From contig NW_027191408.1 of the NCBI RefSeq assembly GCF_041146345.1, positions 930,001 through 994,000 on the forward strand: a stretch of DNA of 64,000 nt, in the 5' to 3' direction. The notes under the pieces are model-generated. The model did not search any database, had not been told where the DNA came from, and was given only the letters and a program-made list of their open reading frames with translations. How positions within the stretch are numbered: position 1 is the stretch's first letter; each line of letters begins with the position of its first letter. Below are positions 4,818 through 35,951 of this stretch, in pieces. The stretch is from Neodothiora populina. Its lineage: Eukaryota. Made by a program: the position numbers and the translations under genes.

Positions 4818-6651
4818 ATGGACTTTGAGTGCGAGTCGGGCAATTGCGGCTCTACCTCTTTTCGCGTGGGCGATGATGGTTACACCTATTGCTCCGAGGG
4901 TCATAGACAGCTTTCTGTAAGACATACGAAGTTGCGGCTTTTCATTGTGGAATCATGTTCTGATCAAAATCTTGCTTCCATAGAGGGGAACACAATTCGC
5001 CGAAGAGAATGAAGGCGCGCCGCAATTCGGTCGGAAAGCCAGGAGATTAGGAGAAGAAGAGGAGGCGATAGATACAGGTGAGCTAAACAATCATCAAACT
5101 GACTTGCGCCTTTTGTGAATACTCGCTGATTGTTCTTTGCACAAAGCTCTGACTGGCAAGCGCGCTTTCGAGCATTACCTGCTGTGCTTTCAGCTTGTCC
5201 TTTGGAAGCAGGTCCATTGGTTGATATCTGTGAAAAGCTTTCCGGTTGAATTTGAGGTATTTCTTGTGCAAAAGCCTATATAATCCACTAGGTGATCTGC
5301 GCTGACGAATTAATATGATAAGACTATGGTTCGTGACCTCTGGGCTCTACGCCTTCAGACACTGCAGTCACGAGCAACTTACGAGTCCGAGAGCGAAGCA
5401 GAGCATAGCTCCCAGCTATGGAGTTCTCAATCTGAAGCCGAAGCTACCGATGCCAGCACCAAACGGAAGTCTCGAAGGAGTAAGATTGATGCAATCCCTC
5501 AGCTCGTCGATGCTGTTAGCTTGTGCTACATTGGATCTCTGTTGCTTCGCCTTCCAGTTGCCGTCAATGATTATCACCAATGGATCGCGAGCGGCGATCT
5601 GATCTACTATAGAGCGGTGACTACGCTCTCGCCTTCCATGAAGTTGAGGTTGCCTTTCAACTTCAGTCAGGCCCTAGATCCTCAGAACATCCTCAAGGCT
5701 AGCAGTCTGCACAAAGCTGTCATAGATAACATTACCGCTTACAGCTCAAGTTTCGGCATGCGCGTGCCTCCGCTGAACCATATTCTGCTACTATATCGAT
5801 GGATGGGCGATTTGGCACTACCATTAGAGGTGTATGCCGCCGTCTTACGAATTGCCAAATTGATCGACGTCCACTTCGACTACGAGGTCGAAGGTCAACG
5901 GAGACCAGCAAGGTTTCTTGTGCTGAGACTCGCCGAGGCCAAGCTCATGTCTCTGATCGTGGTCGCAACGAAGCTACTCTTTCCCATGGACGGGGGAAAA
6001 CGGTATCCTAGAAAGCCTACAGAACTCGCGGCACTAGCTATGGACTGGTCCATCTGGACATCATCACGAGAGCAGCACGAGCAGTCGGAAAAAGACACGC
6101 AGCGTCTTGGCTATGAAGATGCGTTGCGGATATCAGAAAGCGATGTTTTGGAGATGTCGGATGACAAGCTTGATGACTACATGGACTGGTATGGAAGCAC
6201 ATTCGCCGTTGAGCATGTTCGCGAGCATGGACGTGCTAGCAAAGAAGCAGAGTTCAGGCGCGCTATGTTTCGCTACTTCCCTATAGATCGTGCGCCAGGT
6301 GAAACTGAGCAAGAGGCTCGAGAGGAACAGGTCTCGGATGATTTGACTCGTTTACGAGGAGATCGCATCAAGGAGGTCCAATCTGCGCTGAAGCCGCTAC
6401 GGGTCAGACAGGATGGCGATACGATGAGAGATGGAGAGGTCATACAACGGCCTGGCAGTCACTACAAGCGCTTCAGATCGGTTAACGAACTTTCGGGTTA
6501 CGCTGAAGAGTTCTACAAAGAAGCTGCCAAGGTGTCCGGACTTGGGCTCGACTCTCTTGTTCGTGCGGTCTTCACAATGGAGAAAAGGATCGAGGACTTG
6601 GAGGCCAAAGCTCGCAAAGCTGACCAGAGTTCTCATATGGTGGAAGGGTAA
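4818..6651 (+). CDS. RRN7: RNA polymerase I core factor subunit Rrn7 (TAF1B-like), 4 exons
   Basis: N-terminal zinc ribbon C-x4-C...C-x2-GH. The spliced segment YLLCFQLVLWKQVHWL...FETMVRDLWALRL is typical of fungal Rrn7. Confidence 0.85.
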
Positions 6652-27245: not shown

Positions 27246-29429
27246 TCACGCACCGGGCGTAGCCTCCTTGATAGCCCTGAGCAAGTCCTTCAGCTCCTCG
27301 ACCTCCTTCCTCAACTCCCTGACCTCAATAAGAGTAGCATCAGTCTCGACGTTAGGCTTCGACTCCTCACACTTCTTGACCCAACCATCGCGTTCGAAGT
27401 CAAACTCTCCCTCAAGCTGCTCCCACTCCTCGACGGTGTCCTCGTCTTCCTCACCTCTGTTCCTGTTCCACTTGACTTTGCGCGCCACACGCACCTCGAG
27501 CGCCGCAGTGACGCACAACAGCGGCGAGTAAATGAAGCCCATGACGGCGTCGTTGAGGCGCTCGTACGTCGATCGGCTCATCCACCACTCAAAGGGCAGG
27601 ACCAGGAAGATGATCTCGATCAGGTTGAAGGGCGCGATGTAGACGTTTTCGTCGGGCGCGCGCACGAAGCGGATCGTCTTTTGGCTGAAGAGCGCCATGT
27701 ATTCGTCGATGGCGTCGTCGGTGATGTCCTCGTAGGCCGAGTTGTACAGCGCGATCAGGACGTTCAGGAGGACTGTTTTCCCATGTTGATTAGTTTGGTT
27801 CCGTTTCAATTCTTGTAGACCTCCCCCAAGAGAGACTGATTGGTTGTTTACTTACTGACGACGATAATGAAGTTAAAGACATAGTAGAGGATCAAACCGA
27901 AAGGAGGAGCGAAGTTGTCGAAGCCGTCAAAGTCGGGAGAGCCCAGCATGGCGTTGAGCATTTGCAGACTGACGAAACCGACATCATCAAGACTCGAGTC
28001 GACCTGGTCTAGACCGATAAAGGCCTGCAAGAAACCCACGAGCACGACGATGAGCAGCGCGAAGAAGATAAGCGATTCTTGCATCATGACTTTGAGAACG
28101 ACGAGCATGGCACCGAAGAAGCGGTAGCTATCGAGGTAAAGCAACAGGCGGCACCAGAACATTGGCGCCGAAAAGGCGAGGAAATTATAACTCAATGTGT
28201 TGAAGTAGATGCGCTTATCGTCGGCAATGGGGTGTGTGAGGGCAATCATGCGGGTGATGAAAGACACGGTCAGGAAAGCATACAGCGTGTTGTTGAACGT
28301 GTTCCAGAATCCGAGGTAGTATCTGCCCACTTTCCAAAATTTGGCGATCTCGTCGCAGATGAAACCCAGAGTAAAGATGTACAGAAGGCCTTCGACAACA
28401 TCGAGATCACCAGTAGGGTTGATGGTGTTGATGGCACCGGTATAGAGGGCAAGGAAAATGAAACTGAACAGAACCTGGGCAAAGTTTTGATACATCGGGA
28501 CACGCATGCGATCCGGATCGAAGTGAACCCAGTAGTTGCCCGAAGTCTTGTGCTTGTAGTCAATAAAACGACTTGGATCATCCTCGTCTTGTACAAGCCA
28601 GCCGCGCCATAAGTAAGATATACATTTCTGGTAGCCTGTTGGAAAGCATAGTCAGCTTTGAGTTGCTAGCCCATCATTTGGAATACGAGATACATACCGG
28701 AGCTTCCAATGACAGGCAGAACGTGCAGGTCAACTGCTCTTTCAATCACGTTCGCGGGCGGTGTGTCTTCCCCATCAACGACGATGCTATACCGCTTCAA
28801 CAAGACATCTCTCAGCAAATAAGTAATGTCTTCTTCCTCCTCGATGATCTTTCTGGCGAGGACCTCGCAAGCCACCGCTCTGACAGCATGCAGGTCCGCA
28901 TCCCACAGCTCTAGCATCGCTTGCTTCTTGAACCATTTCTTGCAGATGAGCAAACAGAATACCACGCATGCACTGTAATCCGGATTGTCTGACGCGTCAA
29001 GGTTTCCGGGATTGTTCAGTTTGCCTGCTGACTTGGCTGTCGCGACTACCGCCGGAGTGATGATGTTCGAATGCGCCGCTGTGACGCGCGACTCTTCCAG
29101 CTCACATGGCACAACCTGCTCGATCTGATGCTTCAGACGTAGAGCTATGCGCGTGACTTCACGTGCCGGGATTGCACTTTGAAAGTTATCATCATTATGC
29201 GTAGGAAGCACTAGAAGTGGTGTCAGAATCAGGTAGAGTCAAGCGGTGAGAGTGAGAGGAGGTTTAGTAACAGAGCACTTGACCAGACATGGGAGGTAGC
29301 AAGTCTGAAAATTACAGTTTGAAAGCATTGGATTTCTCTTTACTTACGCGCGCTGACTTCGTCTGCTAAGTGCCTAGAGCCATTACCGCGACGACTATCA
29401 AAGTCAAAGAGGCTTGTCCATTTCACCAT
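27246..29429 (-). CDS. YVC1: Vacuolar TRP-family cation channel, 4 exons
   Basis: RLKHQIEQVVPCE, RAVACE, AVDLH, RMRVPMYQN, ILLNVLIALYNSAY and RAPDENVYIAPFNLIE match fungal Yvc1/TRPY1. Confidence 0.93.
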
Positions 29430-30156
29430 CTTGATGAGCACTCAGGCGATTATAGCACAATCGAAGACTACGACCCAATTGGCAGACCTCCAGGATCTGT
29501 AAGTGCCAAACAATCTGGAAAGCGGTGGTGTGGATTGCCCGGCCTATCTACTTTTCTTTGAAACTGGGAATGTTGGCAGTGGGAAAACACCTCAAGGTTC
29601 ATTGGCGCCAGCTCCATGCAAGCAGGTTTAGTGCGTCATATATGGTTCTTAAACTCCGTAAACGCCGACGATGTATACAAAGACTGCGATCGCTTGCTGT
29701 ATGGCAGCAAGAGCGGGACTCTGGAGCACTTTCCACCTAGGCCTGTTTGCATGCTTTACTGTTTTTTGGACGACAAAGTGAAACCACAACAGCGAGAACA
29801 TGTCATAGTAAGGAGCAAATAGAATACGTGGATTCTCGTAAATGCAACCTTCGTATCAGTGTCACAATCTCCCAACTCTTTCCATACACAAAATGTTATA
29901 TCCTCCTCCCACCATATACTCGATGTTCAGCCCATCCTGTGACCTAGCTTCTCTCTATCCCGTCTGTCCCGTTTCACGACTTCACAGCTCCTTCGTGTCG
30001 CGTGCGCGCCGAGGATCGGAGTGCTGCTTACTCGTCTAATCCGTCCGATCAACAAAATCTGCTATGAGGAGGCGCTTGCTGCGCGAGCTCCTCAACAGGG
30101 CCCTGAGAGACAACTCGAAGGACTCCCTCATAATAATGTATCAATCATGTGTCGCA

Positions 30157-32461
30157 TTACTTCGTAGGAATTGCATCAGCGGACACGCCAGCCTCATCGC
30201 GAGGAATGGAGATGCTAGAGCTTCGATTGGTGCGAGCTGCATTCATTTCCTCCTCGAGGCCCTTGAGCTTACCCAAGCGGGCGGTAGGTAGCCACTTCTC
30301 TTCAGGGGTAAACCACCAGGTCAAGACTGCGAAGATGGTGATGCTACCAAAAATGACAGGAGAGTAGTTGAAGTTTTCGCCAGTGACCGGGAACTCGAGT
30401 GGCGAGAACAGAACGGCAGCAAGAAACAGGTTCCAGACCATGGCAATGAAGTTCATGGGAAGAGACCAACGTCCTAGAGACCAGCTTGCTGACTTGAACT
30501 CGTTGGGAGTGACAAACACTCTTCCGAAACAGATAAGGGCGTAGGACATGATGGTAGGCACACCGGCAGCACTGACAAGCGAGGCGAAAGCCACGGGGGA
30601 AGGCAAGATCGTACAGAGCAGCAGCGCTGACACAGTGAGCATGACAGTGACAGCGTTGTTGGGCATCTTCTGATCATTGACTTTGCTGATCCAGCCGGAG
30701 AAAGGAAGGACACCGTCGCGCGCTACTGCCCAGATCAGGCGGGACGATGCCACTCCTGCTACTGTGGTGTTGAAGATGAGGCCGAGGATGCAGATAATCG
30801 TCATGAAGACATGACCTCCCTGGCCCATAGACATCGCGTAGATGCTGATGAATGGCTGTGGTGCGGCAAGATTATAGATAACGTCCAAGTCAGGCATGCA
30901 GAAGAGGAAAAGAATAACAACTGGGAATCCAAGCACAGCAGAGGTGACTGCTGACGAGAAAATGCCGCGAGCCGCTGTCGTGCTTGCATTCTGAGTCTCC
31001 TCGCTGATGTGTCCGCTAGCTTCGAAACCGACCAGTACACCGGCTGTCACATAGTATGAGAGCATCCAGTTCCATACCGGTGGGGCTCCAGTCTCGTTAT
31101 AGGTCTGAGTGAAAACAAACTCGGCAGATTGGAAGCCATACGACTTGGACACCGCGATAGGTAGCCAGATGATGTTAAGGAAGAAGTCAAGCATGATGAG
31201 TCCACTCGCAATACGAAAGATCAGCTTGTAATGCTTGGGGTTCAGATAGTTCATTCCGATGGAGATGAAGAGCATTGCTTCGGCAACTATCCATTGCACT
31301 GCTCTGAACTTGACATCGTTTACGTCGGTAGTAAAGTCAACGCCAAACACTGTTAATTCGGAGAGCAGGTAGTTGGCAGCACCTTGGGAGTTGGAGGCGA
31401 CGAATGTGGTCCATGCTGTAGTGGCCCACCATGCAACGATGAATCCAAAGAGTCGACCAAATTTGCGACCACCGGACTCGGCCGCCCAGAAATAGATGGA
31501 ACCTGCAGCGGGTAGTGCAGAGCAGATTTCGGCCAGGACTGCAGCAGTAATGAAGACGAAGATGCACGTAATGACGTAGCTCGACCTTGTTGGGGGTCAG
31601 CATCTGAGATCACAATAACACTGATTGGGCATGTTGCAATTTAGAGCACAATAGAGCTCAGGAACATGTCTATGTGCACCCCGGGAATACCCTCGCGTAT
31701 GGCTTGAGAGTGCATCATCAACAGAGACTTACCAGTACGCAGCTGGTCCGCCAGCGCCAACACCGATGGAGAAGGTCACACGAATACCTCCAACGAAGTA
31801 GAGTGCGGCTGGAAAAATCAGTATGCGAAGCTCGCAAAACGAATAAGGTCAGGCAAATTCAAAATACCGAAACTGGCCGCGAAGCTTTCAAAGAACTTCC
31901 ATTGCCGATGCAAAGACTACATTGTATCAGTATTGGCATTCTGAAATGCTCAATTAAGCGCACTCACTTGTTTGTAACCGAGTGCGTTCTGCACTGTGTC
32001 AATAAATTAATCAATCACAGGAAAGGGAGAAATCAAGAAAGGTCGATAATTCAGTCATGGCATCTCCTTCCGCGCTCATGAAAGCGATCAAGTTCAAGCG
32101 GTACTCTCTCAGCCCTTGCCATGGCATCGAATCTTCTTCTCAAAAAACTCGATGCCTAGCTCAGACGCCCGCGTGCAATGACTGTTGTTGGTTGTCGTAT
32201 TTTGCTGTTCTTGTTTGGATCTTTCATGGCCTACTTACCAGGTGCCATCGATTGAGCGCGTTGGAAGGATGTTTTGCTTGCCGGTAACGAAAATCGCCAT
32301 TTCGGGATCCCTTTTCATGTCGCCCTTACCAAGTAGCGCTCGTCTGAATCCATGCTGGATGTCTCCTCGAAGTTGCTTTGCAGCTGGTTTGTGGGCTTGA
32401 CTGCATTGTCGATGTCCACACCACTGGCGCGCGCTGTGCCGGAACGGAGCTTGGTCTGCAT
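30157..32461 (-). CDS. APC-superfamily permease (GABA/choline permease-like), probable thiamine or precursor transporter (Thi9-like); exons 32461-32330, 31988-31968, 31916-31868, 31808-31733, 31585-30157; 568 aa
   Basis: Spliced product has DERYL|NALGYKQ|SLHR, GGPAAYW, LAEICSALPAAGSIYFW, GFEASGHISEET and SRLIWAVARDGVLPFS. The substrate is inferred from the intronic TPP aptamer. Confidence 0.9.
32052..32184 (-). promoter_or_regulatory. TPP riboswitch aptamer in intron 1 of the permease
   Basis: Minus strand shows P1 CAGTCATTGCA/TGCCATGACTG, P2 GCGG/CCGC, a long P3 extension GGCATCGAGTTTTTT/AGAAGATTCGATGCC, J3/2 GGCTGAGA, TTGAACTTGAT, P5 CGCTT-TCAT-GAGCG and CGGAAGG. All conserved TPP core elements are present in order. 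Confidence 0.93.
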
Positions 32462-33372
32462 TCTGTAGGTCGATATGCTATGAGCACTTAATCTGAAGGT
32501 GTAGCAGACGGTTGTCTCTATAATATATAAGTCAAAGAACCGTGGCGTGACCACTGGCGACTTTGAAAGATTTTTATGACGCTGCGATCCGCCGACTACG
32601 GTTCAATCACGCCCGGATGAAGAGAAATATCGGAGAGCCTTGTGTTAGCGCGAACGTGAGCTCGTAGCAACTTCGGCCTAAATGCCGTGACTACCCCGAA
32701 TAATTATATAGTGCCGCCGATAGAGATGGCTGCGGGAATTGGCTTCTCAACATTCTCAAGCCGCCCAGGGTCCAACTTACTCGATGGGCCTCGACCGCTC
32801 TACAGTATGAGGAGGACGAAAGCCGTATCGAAGTAATAATATACCACACCAGACGATCTCAGATCAGCTACCCCACGATACAACCTGGCCTGCCATCATC
32901 CTATGTAAAATCCTTTGTACCTAGCAGGTTATTATATATCATGAAGACTTACTGTATCTATCGTCCGGAAGCGACGTTGAAATAAGATTGTCATGACCGA
33001 ACGATTCTACGTTGCCCACAGCCCTTGGAGCCCTTGCAACAACATTGTGACGCGGCACTCCACGGCTTGCAAGAACCGAGACCGTCCAACTCTATGAGGT
33101 ACTCTTCATTCTTTTTCCTTAGGATCTTGGTGTTCCTAGGGTCATTCATCTAGATTTCCTTGTCCTTGTACTTGTCATCACCACTCTCTTGATCTTTAGC
33201 TCTGCGGCCACGATTGCCTTGGGTCGCTTCATTCTCACGTTGAGCTTTTCTCTGACAGTTGGATCTATATTCGCAATCTAGCAAAGACATCTGCGCAATG
33301 TCATAACCCCCAATTTCGTATATATCCTCTCCTCAAAAGGCACCATGAGAAAGCTCAATTATGGCCTAGTAA

Positions 33373-35951
33373 ATGCCGCAAAGCACTTGTGATATACCAA
33401 GATTGGTTATGGATTGTCAACCTCCCCCTTCAGACTCTAGTCGCACCGCGATAGTAGGCAAAGATGACCTCAATATAGGTGACATCGGTTCTGTGCGACA
33501 TGCGTGGACCGAGAGACCTGGGTTGTCAGGAGTAGGAGCCTATCGAAGCTCTACAGAGCGCAGGACGTCTCTGACCCGGGAATCGAGCAAAATTTTGTGG
33601 AAGTTTAAGCTTCGACCCTGGGACGATGATCAGGAGAGAGACTGGTGGTTCGCGGGAACGGCGATTCCGTAAATCAGATACCTCGTAGCATCTCATAAGC
33701 CAAAGCTAACCATTGACTAGCTTGCTCGCTGCAACTCTGGGACCTCTCGCAAACGTGCTTTCAATAGCAGCACTTGTTACTTATTGGCGCATGTGTTTGA
33801 TAGATGGCGTAGATCCTGCGACATGCCCATCGATCGGGGTTGATACATTGCTCGCAGAATTATATGGACATACCTTTGAGGATCCCAAGTGGTAAGCCAT
33901 CGCAGTTGCATCAGGACCGATACACAACTGATCTTGAGTCAGGTGTTATGACCTGAATGTAGTATCTCTGGTTGCAGGATTTGTGGGTAACATATTCCTG
34001 TTGTTCAACTTCACAGGCCGAGTGAGATACATGATTTCCCTGCCTGTCACCATTTTGTCGTGGTACCTGGCAACAGGCATTGTAAGCTCTTCCATGTACA
34101 CTGATAAGCTTCGGTCTAATACCTATGCAGTTGATGGCAATTACAATATCAATGGATGTCTATGTGGCTCCTATGCGCCCTCAGCAGACGTACACACAGG
34201 GTTTTTGGTATGCTGTCATTGCAGCGGTGTTGTATATGGTCGCCTCTATGCTCCTCATGATCAACATGCTCGGCTATTTTCTTGGACACTATCCTCAACA
34301 ATTCAATCTCACAGATTCGCAGCGAACATTGATCCTCCAGACAATGCTGTTCTTTATTTGGCTTGCCGGAGGCGCGGGTGTGTTCTCTACGATCGAGACC
34401 AAATATGGCAATGGTGACATTCCTTGGTCTTATGTGAATGCCTTGTATTTCTGCGACGTTACTATCCTCACCGTCGGCTTCGGGGATCTGTACCCAACCA
34501 GCGACACAGGACGCGGACTGGTTTTCCCATATTCAGTGGGTGGTATTGTTATGCTAGGTCTGATGATCTCGAGCATCACCAAGTTCGCTTCGGAATTGGG
34601 ACAGGACAAGGTACTGCAGAAGCATGTGGAGAGATCTCGGACAAGAACGGTCGGCAGAGCTGTGACGACCTCGATTGAGCTTCAGGAACGCGAACGTGTT
34701 CTATCCTCAAGACCAGTCATACCAGGCCCTCTGCCTGTACCTCAACAAGGTACACCGCTCCGGATCATTGACAATAAAGAAGAATTGAAGAAACAAGCCG
34801 AGCAAGTCCCCTCGCATAGCCAATTGCGACATGGCTTGCGACGTATGACAGGACAGCTCACACCGTTCAAACCAGCAAAGAAATCGCGATTGTTACTGCT
34901 GCGAGAGGAGAAAGATCGGTTCGATGCCATGCGCAACATCCAGCGAAGCACAGCAAAGTGGAAACGATGGTATTCGCTTGTTCTGTCCGTCATGGCATTT
35001 GGAATCTTGTGGTGCATCGGCGCAGTCACCTTCTGGCAGGCAGAGAAGCGTGAGCAGGGCATTACCTATTTCCAGTCACTCTATCTCTGCTATGTATCTC
35101 TTCTCACCATCGGCTATGGCGATCTAGCTCCTAGGAGTAATGCCGGACGACCATTCTTCGTTGTATGGTCTCTCGTTGCCGTACCAACGATGACCATCCT
35201 CATCACTGAGATGAGCGATACCATCATTGGTGATTTCAAGAAGGCGACCTCGGGTGTCGCAGGTTTTACCGTATTGCCTGAACGTGGAGTCTGGCACAGG
35301 TTTCTAGACAGACAGCCTTGGCTTCTCAGAGTAATAGCCCGACGACGCGCGGACAAAGATGCCCGCTTGAGACTTCAGCGGGGCTTTGAGGTTGGCCCTG
35401 ATCCCGAAGACCCAGATGAAGGTCTCAATGAAGAAGCACCTACGCTGGCCACTTTAGCTGCCGAGGACGATGACGGGAATGGACCAGTGAAAAAGCCCAG
35501 TGATTTCGATCTTGCGCGAAGACTTGCTCGTGCAATTCGGCGCACCGCCAACGATCTGCGTGCTGACCCGCCTCGTAGGTATAGCTATGAGGAGTGGGTT
35601 GAACTTACTCGACTCATTCGCTTCACCTCACATAAAGGCCACGGTGAAGCACAAGACGAATCGGTAGAAGAAGGTCTCGTGGAATGGGATTGGATCGGCG
35701 AAGATTCACCTATGATGGCACAGGAAAGCGAGGCAGAGTTCGTACTGGATCGACTGTGTGAAAGCATGGGAAGATATATACGTCGGTTAGCATCCCCAGA
35801 AGATGACGATGACGACGAGGGGGGTGAACGACAGGCTCCTAGCAGTGCAGATGAAAATAGAGCTGTGGACAATGTGTTGGATGATGACAACGATGATACC
35901 ATCGTTGACGAGAGTAACGGATCCACTGCAGACGCGTCGAAAAGGCGTTAG
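33373..35951 (+). CDS. TOK1: Outward-rectifying two-pore-domain potassium channel, 4 exons (start uncertain: 33373 or 33409)
   Basis: Two pore signatures TVGFGD and TIGYGD. N-terminal WWFAGTAIP|LLAATLGPLAN and LTDSQRTLILQ are typical of TOK1. Confidence 0.93.

Follow-up and report, generated by a model that had tools for sequence, protein, structure and literature searches.

The stretch of DNA analyzed here (the window, 64,000 nucleotides) comes from Neodothiora populina, a Dothideales ascomycete (Dothideomycete), and covers positions 930,001 to 994,000 of contig NW_027191408.1. On its reverse strand lies the gene AAFC00_002266, whose first coding intron is the subject of this report: the intron carries a predicted thiamine pyrophosphate (TPP) aptamer and probably functions as a riboswitch that represses the gene by altering the choice of 5' splice site. 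The gene has five exons, the splice junctions of which were checked by script, and their joint translation is letter for letter the deposited protein P0001 of 568 amino acids (aa), "hypothetical protein AAFC00_002266 [Neodothiora populina]". The translation of the last exon has the APC-superfamily permease fold, matching the Pfam family AA_permease_2 (PF13520) with an E value of 4.6e-50 over its residues 3-414, and relatives at 57-59% identity carry the source name "Thiamine transporter thi9" (P0090, P0096, P0117, P0120). The product is presumably a Thi9-like permease of the amino-acid/polyamine/choline (APC) superfamily and a putative importer of thiamine or of a thiamine precursor. The exons and the signals of the first intron are arranged as follows, in window coordinates and with (-) for the reverse strand.

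32461..32330 (-): coding part of exon 1; ATG at 32461-32459, 44 codons, ending in GAG CGC TAC TTG (...DERYL)
32329..31989 (-): intron 1, the first coding intron, 341 nt
32329..32324 (-): distal donor (S1), TTG/GTAAGG; sub-consensus, with G and not T at +6; its use leads to the full open reading frame (ORF)
32317..32315 (-): in-frame TGA, in the frame GTA AGG GCG ACA TGA read from 32329
32238..32233 (-): proximal donor (S2), CTG/GTAAGT; full consensus; its use keeps 91 nt, including the stop
32184..32049 (-): predicted TPP aptamer, P1-P5; CUGAGA at 32112-32107; a 44-nt insertion lengthens the P3 hairpin
32048..31989 (-): 3' part of the intron, with a pyrimidine-rich tract, a TTGAC branch-like site (32002-31998) and the acceptors
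31995-31994 (-): upstream tandem AG (CACAG), 5 nt before the acceptor TGCAG and just past TTGAC
31990-31989 (-): AG of the acceptor TGCAG, the single acceptor common to S1 and S2
31988..31968 (-): micro-exon 2, 21 nt, NALGYKQ, with a GTGAGT donor next to it
31916-31868 (-): exon 3, transporter body (AA_permease_2)
31808-31733 (-): exon 4, transporter body (AA_permease_2)
31585-30157 (-): exon 5, transporter body (AA_permease_2), stop included

In an initial annotation of this intron the output of the riboswitch had been described as a choice between two alternative 5' splice sites, both joined to the same acceptor and with a premature stop between them. The signals on which that description relied (S1 at 32329, S2 at 32238 and the acceptor TGCAG at 31989) are all present on the reverse strand, and joining 32330 to 31988 gives ...DERYL/NALGYKQ in frame, a junction that matches P0001. 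The S2-spliced isoform with its 91 additional nucleotides and the fully retained intron both end after 48 aa because both keep the TGA at 32317-32315; the truncation that had been announced for these two products is thus reproduced by computation. An inspection by eye of the retained 91 nt revealed no AUG in a phase that would let translation resume in the main frame once S2 has been used. Were the upstream AG at 31995-31994 chosen, the frame would shift and a stop would come after 79 aa. Tandem acceptors 5 nt apart are also kept in close relatives (CAGAGCAG, CAGGGCAG, CAGTGCAG). The core of the proposed output is supported by covariation within the aptamer, by conservation of the donor layout and by a splice junction in a contig of a relative.

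The aptamer, whose end lies 60 nt before the AG at 31990-31989, was recognized in a permissive Rfam scan of positions 31700-32700 as a match to RF00059 at 32182-32047 (-), with an E value of 1.4e-6 and covering model positions 1-105 of 105; its score of 41.7 bits falls short of the gathering score of 54.3 bits because of the 44-nt insertion in P3 and of ten deleted model positions (P3a is missing). The signature elements CUGAGA, ACC, UGAACUUGAUC and GCG-AAGGA are all in place in the cmscan alignment and are invariant in 13 orthologous aptamers, and the RNA of the window's aptamer, when folded alone, adopts the expected P1-P5 architecture. A covariance model of our own (R1), built from these 13 aptamers, gives 125.1 bits on the window's aptamer, its one match in the window. 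When the 13 sequences are aligned with MAFFT, 90% of the cells in P1, P2, the base of P3, P4 and P5 are paired, as opposed to 30-47% in slid controls. Both sides have changed in 9 of the 28 pairs (in P1, P2, the base of P3 and P5; P4 is invariant and so uninformative), and the observed covariation score was reached by none of 500 shuffles, with the qualification that the structure under test derives from the fold of the window itself and is favored somewhat for that reason. On these comparative grounds we consider the aptamer genuine and maintained by selection; its ligand would be TPP.

A protein-guided scan of metagenome contigs yielded 80 related loci (L001-L080). R1 detects an aptamer in 57 of them (a first scan with a regular expression had caught only 18), and in 46 loci the aptamer lies upstream of the large exon. 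The whole intron is present in 35 sequences, the window included, which were reduced to 23 distinct introns by merging those more than 90% alike. The donor layout of this collection is strikingly uniform. S1 never has the full GTRWGT motif (0/23), GTAAGA and GTAAGG being its usual forms; every intron (23/23) has an in-frame stop after S1, 4-49 nt into its sequence; and a full GTRWGT at the S2 position, +62 to +114 and upstream of the aptamer, is found in 21 of the 23. Mononucleotide shuffles of the same regions produce such a donor in only 2.1 of 23 introns (the maximum was 8 in 1000 shuffles), the reverse complement has one in 3 of 23, and even the longer segment made up of the aptamer and the 3' part has one in 7 of 23. 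The constitutive donor of the micro-exon, which is itself kept in the orthologous loci, conforms to GTRWGT in 9 of 23, and the background frequency of the motif in the window is 0.88 per kb. Given an S2 in 21 of 23 introns against such low control counts, the succession of a weak outer donor, a stop and a strong inner donor is, on this comparative evidence, a selected design and not a product of chance.

One of the metagenome contigs appears to record the use of the inner donor. L010, of 2086 nt, encodes a protein 75% identical to that of the window and looks like an mRNA, with a leader of about 108 nt, an uninterrupted coding body and a trailer of about 250 nt; R1 found no aptamer in it. Comparison with a genomic relative, L023, shows that the first block of L010 corresponds to L023 3263-3457, that is, to exon 1 and the S1-S2 segment, and ends immediately before the proximal GTGAGT, a donor located at intron position +86 of L023. 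This block is followed directly by the micro-exon and then by L023 3776-3822, 3873-3951 and 3999-5357. None of the four downstream introns is left, the riboswitch intron has been removed from its proximal donor, and the frame reads ...TAC TTG GTA TGA, so that the in-frame stop is kept. To judge by its sequence, L010 is the predicted nonsense (OFF) isoform, seen in a relative, and as far as the literature searched shows, it is the first transcript-level sign of proximal-donor use in an intron of this kind. A second contig, L029, has the uninterrupted reading ...DELQL-RS-LGYKQ... and could represent either the productive isoform or an intron-less gene.

The segment between the stop and S2 contains a further element, here called alpha, which can compete with the aptamer for one of its strands (alpha'). 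The pairing partners, with a second complementarity next to S2, are the following.

32269..32253 (-): alpha, the anti-aptamer element UCCUUCC-AAC-GCGCUCA, between the stop and S2 and 13 nt upstream of S2; complement of UGAGCGCGGAAGGA
32228..32221 (-): CAUGAAAG, just 3' of S2; complement of CUUUCAUG (32084-32077, the 5' strand and loop of P5)
32078..32065 (-): alpha', UGAGCGCGGAAGGA, made up of the P5 3' strand, J and the P4 3' strand; can pair inside the aptamer or, alternatively, with alpha
32062-32059 (-): UGCC, an extension of alpha' in the P1 3' strand; four more pairs, with 32282-32279

Folded without ligand, the window's intron has a minimum-energy structure that lacks the aptamer and in which alpha (32269-32253) is paired with alpha' (32078-32065) in a helix of 14 bp with one 3-nt bulge; CAUGAAAG is partly paired with the CUUUC of P5 in this fold and in the ensemble. 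The duplex between the 5' flank and the aptamer has an energy of -35.3 kcal/mol, compared with -25.5 kcal/mol for dinucleotide shuffles, none of 100 of which was as low. In 10 of the 23 distinct introns no more than 1 of 100 shuffles reaches an energy as low as that of the corresponding duplex; the mean z is -1.9. Across the ligand-free ensembles of 22 orthologs, the region from -50 to -10 relative to S2 pairs with the aptamer with mean probabilities of 0.24-0.60, peaking at 0.57-0.60 between -30 and -16, and the partner on the aptamer side is its last 30 nt or so. S1, with probabilities of 0.00-0.02, never pairs with the aptamer.

The MAFFT alignment of the alpha region was inconsistent across the 22 sequences, and for this reason the energies of cognate and non-cognate duplexes were compared in place of a formal count of pairs. 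Cognate alpha/alpha' duplexes average -27.5 kcal/mol and non-cognate ones -24.6 kcal/mol (permutation p = 1.5e-4, in a test that is inflated because related sequences share both elements by descent), and the cognate duplex is the best or second best in 9 of the 22 rows. Alpha changes so as to match P5 and the junction of its own aptamer, as GCGCUCA/UGAGCGC in the window and GCGCAUG/CAUGCGC in L005; further co-varying partners are GCGCAUAU/GUAUGCGC (L013, L056) and UUACGCGC/GCGCGUAA (L004). Changes on both sides are seen at 12 of 22 alpha' positions, a count that comes from energy-optimized duplexes and so leans towards pairing. The geometry is compact: the median distances are 53 nt from S1 to alpha, 11.5 nt from alpha to S2, 190 nt for the loop and 71 nt from alpha' to the 3' splice site. 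Such a conserved element 5' of S2 suggests a candidate expression platform, a short-range version of the loop-out known from the Neurospora crassa gene NCU01977.

To our knowledge, the mechanism of eukaryotic riboswitches has been worked out experimentally for a few genes only, namely NMT1, THI4, NCU01977, plant THIC and Candida DUR31. NCU01977, a member of the DUR31 family, offers the most instructive parallel for the intron studied here. Only its distal donor gives an ORF, the proximal donors leading to premature stops (Li and Breaker 2013, PMC3597705), and this OFF switch in an intron of the coding sequence (CDS), with its premature stops in the CDS, was demonstrated by reverse transcription PCR (RT-PCR) and reporters (PMC3597705). 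Without TPP, the 3' side of the aptamer is base-paired with an element located between the distal donor and the proximal ones; this pairing loops the proximal donors out, and the distal donor comes to lie close to the acceptor. Binding of TPP withdraws alpha' (PMC3597705). The window shares with NCU01977 an element between S1 and S2 that pairs with the 3' side of the aptamer and shows compensatory changes (subject to the qualifications on pairing given above and below), as well as short distances from S1 to alpha and from alpha' to the 3' splice site (PMC3597705). The dimensions differ: NCU01977 has an intron of about 600 nt, some 530 nt between the partners and three proximal donors, whereas the window has 341 nt, some 170 nt and one consensus S2. 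In NCU01977 alpha' is the 3' shoulder of P1, while in the window it consists mainly of the 3' strands of P5 and P4 with few P1 pairs; and the host is a member of the sodium:solute symporter family in the former and an APC-superfamily permease (AA_permease_2) in the latter. The traits of the NCU01977 type ("Type II"), that is, a 550-900-nt intron, a separation of about 500 nt, several proximal donors, an alpha' in the P1 shoulder and a urea/DUR31 host, are not found in the window.

The Type III riboswitches of Mukherjee et al. (2018, PMC5882874) are internal introns of 200-400 nt with two donors, an in-frame stop between these and an AG after the aptamer. In that survey TPP is proposed to shift splicing to S2 and so to truncate the protein, in a manner mechanistically like that of Type I, where the aptamer interacts with the donors, an effect not experimentally observed (PMC5882874). 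The window's intron conforms to this layout: it is an internal coding intron of 341 nt with S1 at 32329, a TGA at 32317-32315, S2 at 32238 and an AG downstream of the aptamer. It departs from Type III as published in its Dothideomycete host, in a conserved complementarity that involves alpha, upstream of S2, and not the donors, and in the existence of one S2-spliced transcript-like contig, L010, the one instance in which proximal-donor use was seen. The same survey describes an amino-acid-transporter class of riboswitches that is widespread in Basidiomycota and absent from Ascomycota (PMC5882874). The gathering score of Rfam misses the present aptamer group (41.7 versus 54.3 bits in the window), which may explain that reported absence.

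With the NMT1 and THI4 riboswitches of N. crassa the window has in common the alternative 5' splice sites upstream of the aptamer, the involvement of P4-P5 in the ligand-free pairing and a TPP effect in favor of the proximal donor (PMC3597705, PMC5882874), in the window's case a predicted one. The introns of NMT1 and THI4, however, are in the 5' untranslated region (5'-UTR) and repress through upstream open reading frames (uORFs), whereas in the window the in-frame stop is inside the CDS. The initial annotation had pointed to this last distinction. Its architectural part stands; the novelty that it implied does not, since an OFF switch inside the CDS had been shown experimentally for NCU01977 (PMC3597705) and the Type III layout had been published (PMC5882874).

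Finally, the association of a TPP aptamer with homologs of Schizosaccharomyces pombe Thi9, including those of Pezizomycotina, places the locus beside the thi9 group (Moldovan et al. 2018, as cited in PMC5997356 and PMC8786325). The Thi9 orthologs of Taphrinomycotina, Pezizomycotina and basidiomycetes are said to carry riboswitches that "remain to be experimentally characterized" (Donovan et al. 2018, PMC5997356, citing Moldovan et al. 2018), and a later paper regards the group as unvalidated (PMC8786325). We found no experimental work on the splicing of a thi9-type riboswitch in the literature searched, a body of text that excludes the supplementary tables of PMC5882874 and PMC5997356 and Moldovan et al. 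(2018) itself, and Neodothiora is not named in the portions of the riboswitch literature covered. Set against these sources, the locus is a further case of a known fungal splicing switch (Type III layout, thi9 group) and not a new class of mechanism.

We consider it probable, at roughly 0.7, that the first coding intron of AAFC00_002266 is a TPP riboswitch, that it acts as an OFF switch through the choice of 5' splice site, and that it does so by an alpha-alpha' loop-out. When TPP is scarce, alpha' (32078-32065 plus 32062-32059) would pair with alpha (32269-32253) and the aptamer could not form. Enclosed by the resulting helix, the strong S2 and the aptamer's 5' half would form a loop of about 170 nt, and the weak S1, which precedes alpha by 47 nt, would come close to the branch site and acceptor, which follow alpha' by about 70 nt; with S1 in use, the whole intron would be removed and the 568-aa transporter made. 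When TPP is abundant, the ligand-bound aptamer would hold alpha', alpha would be released, and the consensus S2 would outcompete S1 to give an mRNA that keeps 91 nt with the TGA and encodes 48 aa. This mRNA would probably be degraded by nonsense-mediated decay (NMD) because at least three exon junctions lie downstream of its stop. The co-evolving alpha may thus capture the 3' strands of P5, P4 and P1 in the absence of TPP, loop out S2 and hand splicing to a weakened S1. That TPP drives the switch, that it does so in the OFF direction and that the nonsense isoform is subject to NMD are suggested by the precedent of NCU01977 (PMC3597705) and by the feedback logic of an importer; the loop-out would be the reason why S1 is preferred.

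Several observations weigh against this interpretation, in addition to the inflated permutation test and the optimized duplexes already mentioned. The flank/aptamer duplex is not distinguishable from shuffles (at least 6 of 100 as low) in 12 of the 23 introns, and the cognate duplex falls in the worse half of the comparison with non-cognate ones in 7 of 22 rows. At gathering thresholds, Rfam reports nothing in the 64-kb window. Among the introns, L011 has only a GTAAGA at the place of S2, and L028, with an intron of 193 nt, has no second donor. The RNA origin of L010 is deduced from a contig without introns. The sole N. populina run listed, which is probably of DNA, gave 3 short contigs (30000-30253 and 32408-32671), none of which is in the intron and none of which contains a joint. 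Lastly, across the 22 orthologs the mean predicted accessibility of S2 (-3 to +6) is 0.40 in the ligand-free and 0.41 in the aptamer-closed state (Wilcoxon p = 0.97), and that of S1 is 0.38 and 0.35, respectively (p = 0.61); the donors being equally accessible in both states, thermodynamic folding alone does not predict the switch.

The window itself presents a particular feature in this respect. The end of exon 1 together with S1 (32341-32323, GAGCGCUACUUGGUAAGGG) resembles the alpha' stretch (32078-32064, GAGCGCGGAAGGAG), and alpha can therefore pair with either. In the modeled aptamer-closed state of the window the freed alpha pairs with the GAGCGC of exon 1 and with the UUGG and AAGGG of S1, at probabilities of 0.93-1.0. 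Masking of S1 by released alpha was rejected as a general step, since its probability is 0.3 or higher in just one of the 22 orthologs, and was kept as a possibility specific to the window: there, according to the folding model, released alpha may hide S1 when TPP is bound, in a toggle with three partners.

The most serious competitor of the loop-out is a direct masking of the NMT1 kind, in which, without TPP, nucleotides of P4-P5 would pair with S2 and hide it from U1, and TPP would unmask it with no looping out. This is the mechanism described for NMT1 and THI4 (PMC3597705), and Mukherjee et al. read Type III as similar to Type I (PMC5882874). S2 (-3 to +6) is predicted to pair with the aptamer at 0.36 or more in 8 of the 22 orthologs (L022, L024, L040, L056, L061, L064, L066, L078), and in seven orthologs the alpha-alpha' helix comes within 1 nt of S2 or extends into it (alpha ending at -7 to +1 nt). 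In the window, the UAAGU of S2 can pair with an ACUUG of the aptamer, and CAUGAAAG, 3' of S2, matches CUUUCAUG. Against this, the window's S2 pairs with the aptamer at a probability of 0.00 and has accessibilities of 0.59 and 0.58 in the two states, and it is 10-50 nt upstream of S2, not at the site itself, that complementarity is best conserved. Masking of S2 as the common mechanism was dropped in view of the unchanged accessibility (p = 0.97) in the ligand-free and aptamer-closed ensembles of the 22 orthologs. We regard direct masking as an unlikely explanation of the whole, one that may contribute in some lineages without being their common denominator.

A riboswitch that controls only whether the intron is retained or spliced from S1, as has been suggested for DUR31 of Candida parapsilosis, would make little use of S2. 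Retention yields the same 48-aa product; in DUR31 there is a second donor with little evidence of regulation, and some genes have one obvious donor (Donovan et al. 2018, PMC5997356); L011 and L028 lack a consensus S2. This alternative is less probable still, since an unused S2 would hardly be expected to keep the full consensus at one set position in 21 of the 23 introns (2.1 of 23 for shuffles), and L010 shows the S2 junction in a relative.

That TPP might instead favor the distal donor and raise the expression of the transporter is very improbable at this locus. An ON reading of NCU01977 was indeed once published, before the annotation was corrected, but the same laboratory withdrew it (PMC3597705). 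The ligand-free minimum-energy fold of the window pairs part of S1 with the 3' pyrimidine tract, yet S1 is predicted to be less accessible in the window's aptamer-closed state than in the ligand-free one (0.13 versus 0.49). Moreover, a strong, acceptor-proximal S2 is the expected default, the sole conserved structure that competes with the aptamer encloses S2 and not S1, and the feedback logic of an importer would call for repression. Equally improbable is a constitutive intron in which the aptamer would be no more than a degenerate remnant or a fortuitous match and the donors mere noise: its Rfam score is below gathering and the thi9 group is considered unvalidated and possibly losing function (PMC8786325), but the match has an E value of 1.4e-6 over the full model, the aptamer recurs in the same intron of 46 related loci with compensatory changes, and the splice-site layout and the alpha element are conserved with it.

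What is added here to the known switches is the comparative layout statistics, a candidate expression platform with its co-variation, and one S2-spliced contig, a modest addition that leaves the general picture of the fungal TPP riboswitches unchanged. The thi9 group and the Type III layout have been predicted only, and the locus provides a clean and compact example with specific predictions that can be addressed by mutation of alpha (32269-32253), of alpha' (32078-32065), of the +6 position of S1 and of the GT of S2.

The scan for related loci also uncovered a second, paralogous clade of permeases, 44-49% identical to the window's protein and represented by 11 loci (L041-L044, L048, L049, L051-L055), with NCBI relatives in Pseudogymnoascus, Aspergillus, Penicillium, Paecilomyces and others, several of which are named thi9. 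In this clade the aptamer is on the coding strand and follows the stop codon at a distance of 58-151 nt. Ten of the 11 loci have a GTRWGT donor 20-37 nt ahead of P2, and most loci have CTRAC-like sites, then AG, 30-115 nt after the aptamer. In L051, for example, the stop is at 5381 and the aptamer at 5532-5636, and more than 1 kb then passes without a long ORF; where the window has its riboswitch intron, L044 has none. The aptamer of the second clade apparently sits in an intron of the 3' untranslated region (3'-UTR), as far as these sequence signals indicate. A 3'-UTR aptamer in the fungal clade, if confirmed, would couple TPP to NMD or to 3'-end processing, as in plant THIC. The fungal TPP literature searched, to which the supplements of PMC5882874 and PMC5997356 did not belong, contains no mention of a 3'-UTR riboswitch in fungi. 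A more ambitious synthesis would hold jointly that the thi9 Type III switch is a short-range NCU01977 loop-out and not a small copy of NMT1, that Neodothiora has added a clamp of alpha on S1, and that a sister clade has its aptamer in the 3'-UTR; we advance this combination tentatively, its chances being somewhat below even.

None of the four neighboring genes identified around AAFC00_002266 is related to thiamine. Downstream and on the same strand there is a YVC1/TRPY1-like vacuolar channel (27851-29238, reverse strand); upstream and divergent there is a two-pore-domain K+ channel (34089-35948, forward strand); the others encode a GH47 mannosidase and an RSN1/PHM7-like protein. A last observation concerns the micro-exon: the deposited model of P0006, from a close relative (Dothideomycetes sp. 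NU459), reads ...DERYL-TLHRQWKFF, without NALGYKQ, and the annotation of that genome seems to have skipped the 21-nt exon.

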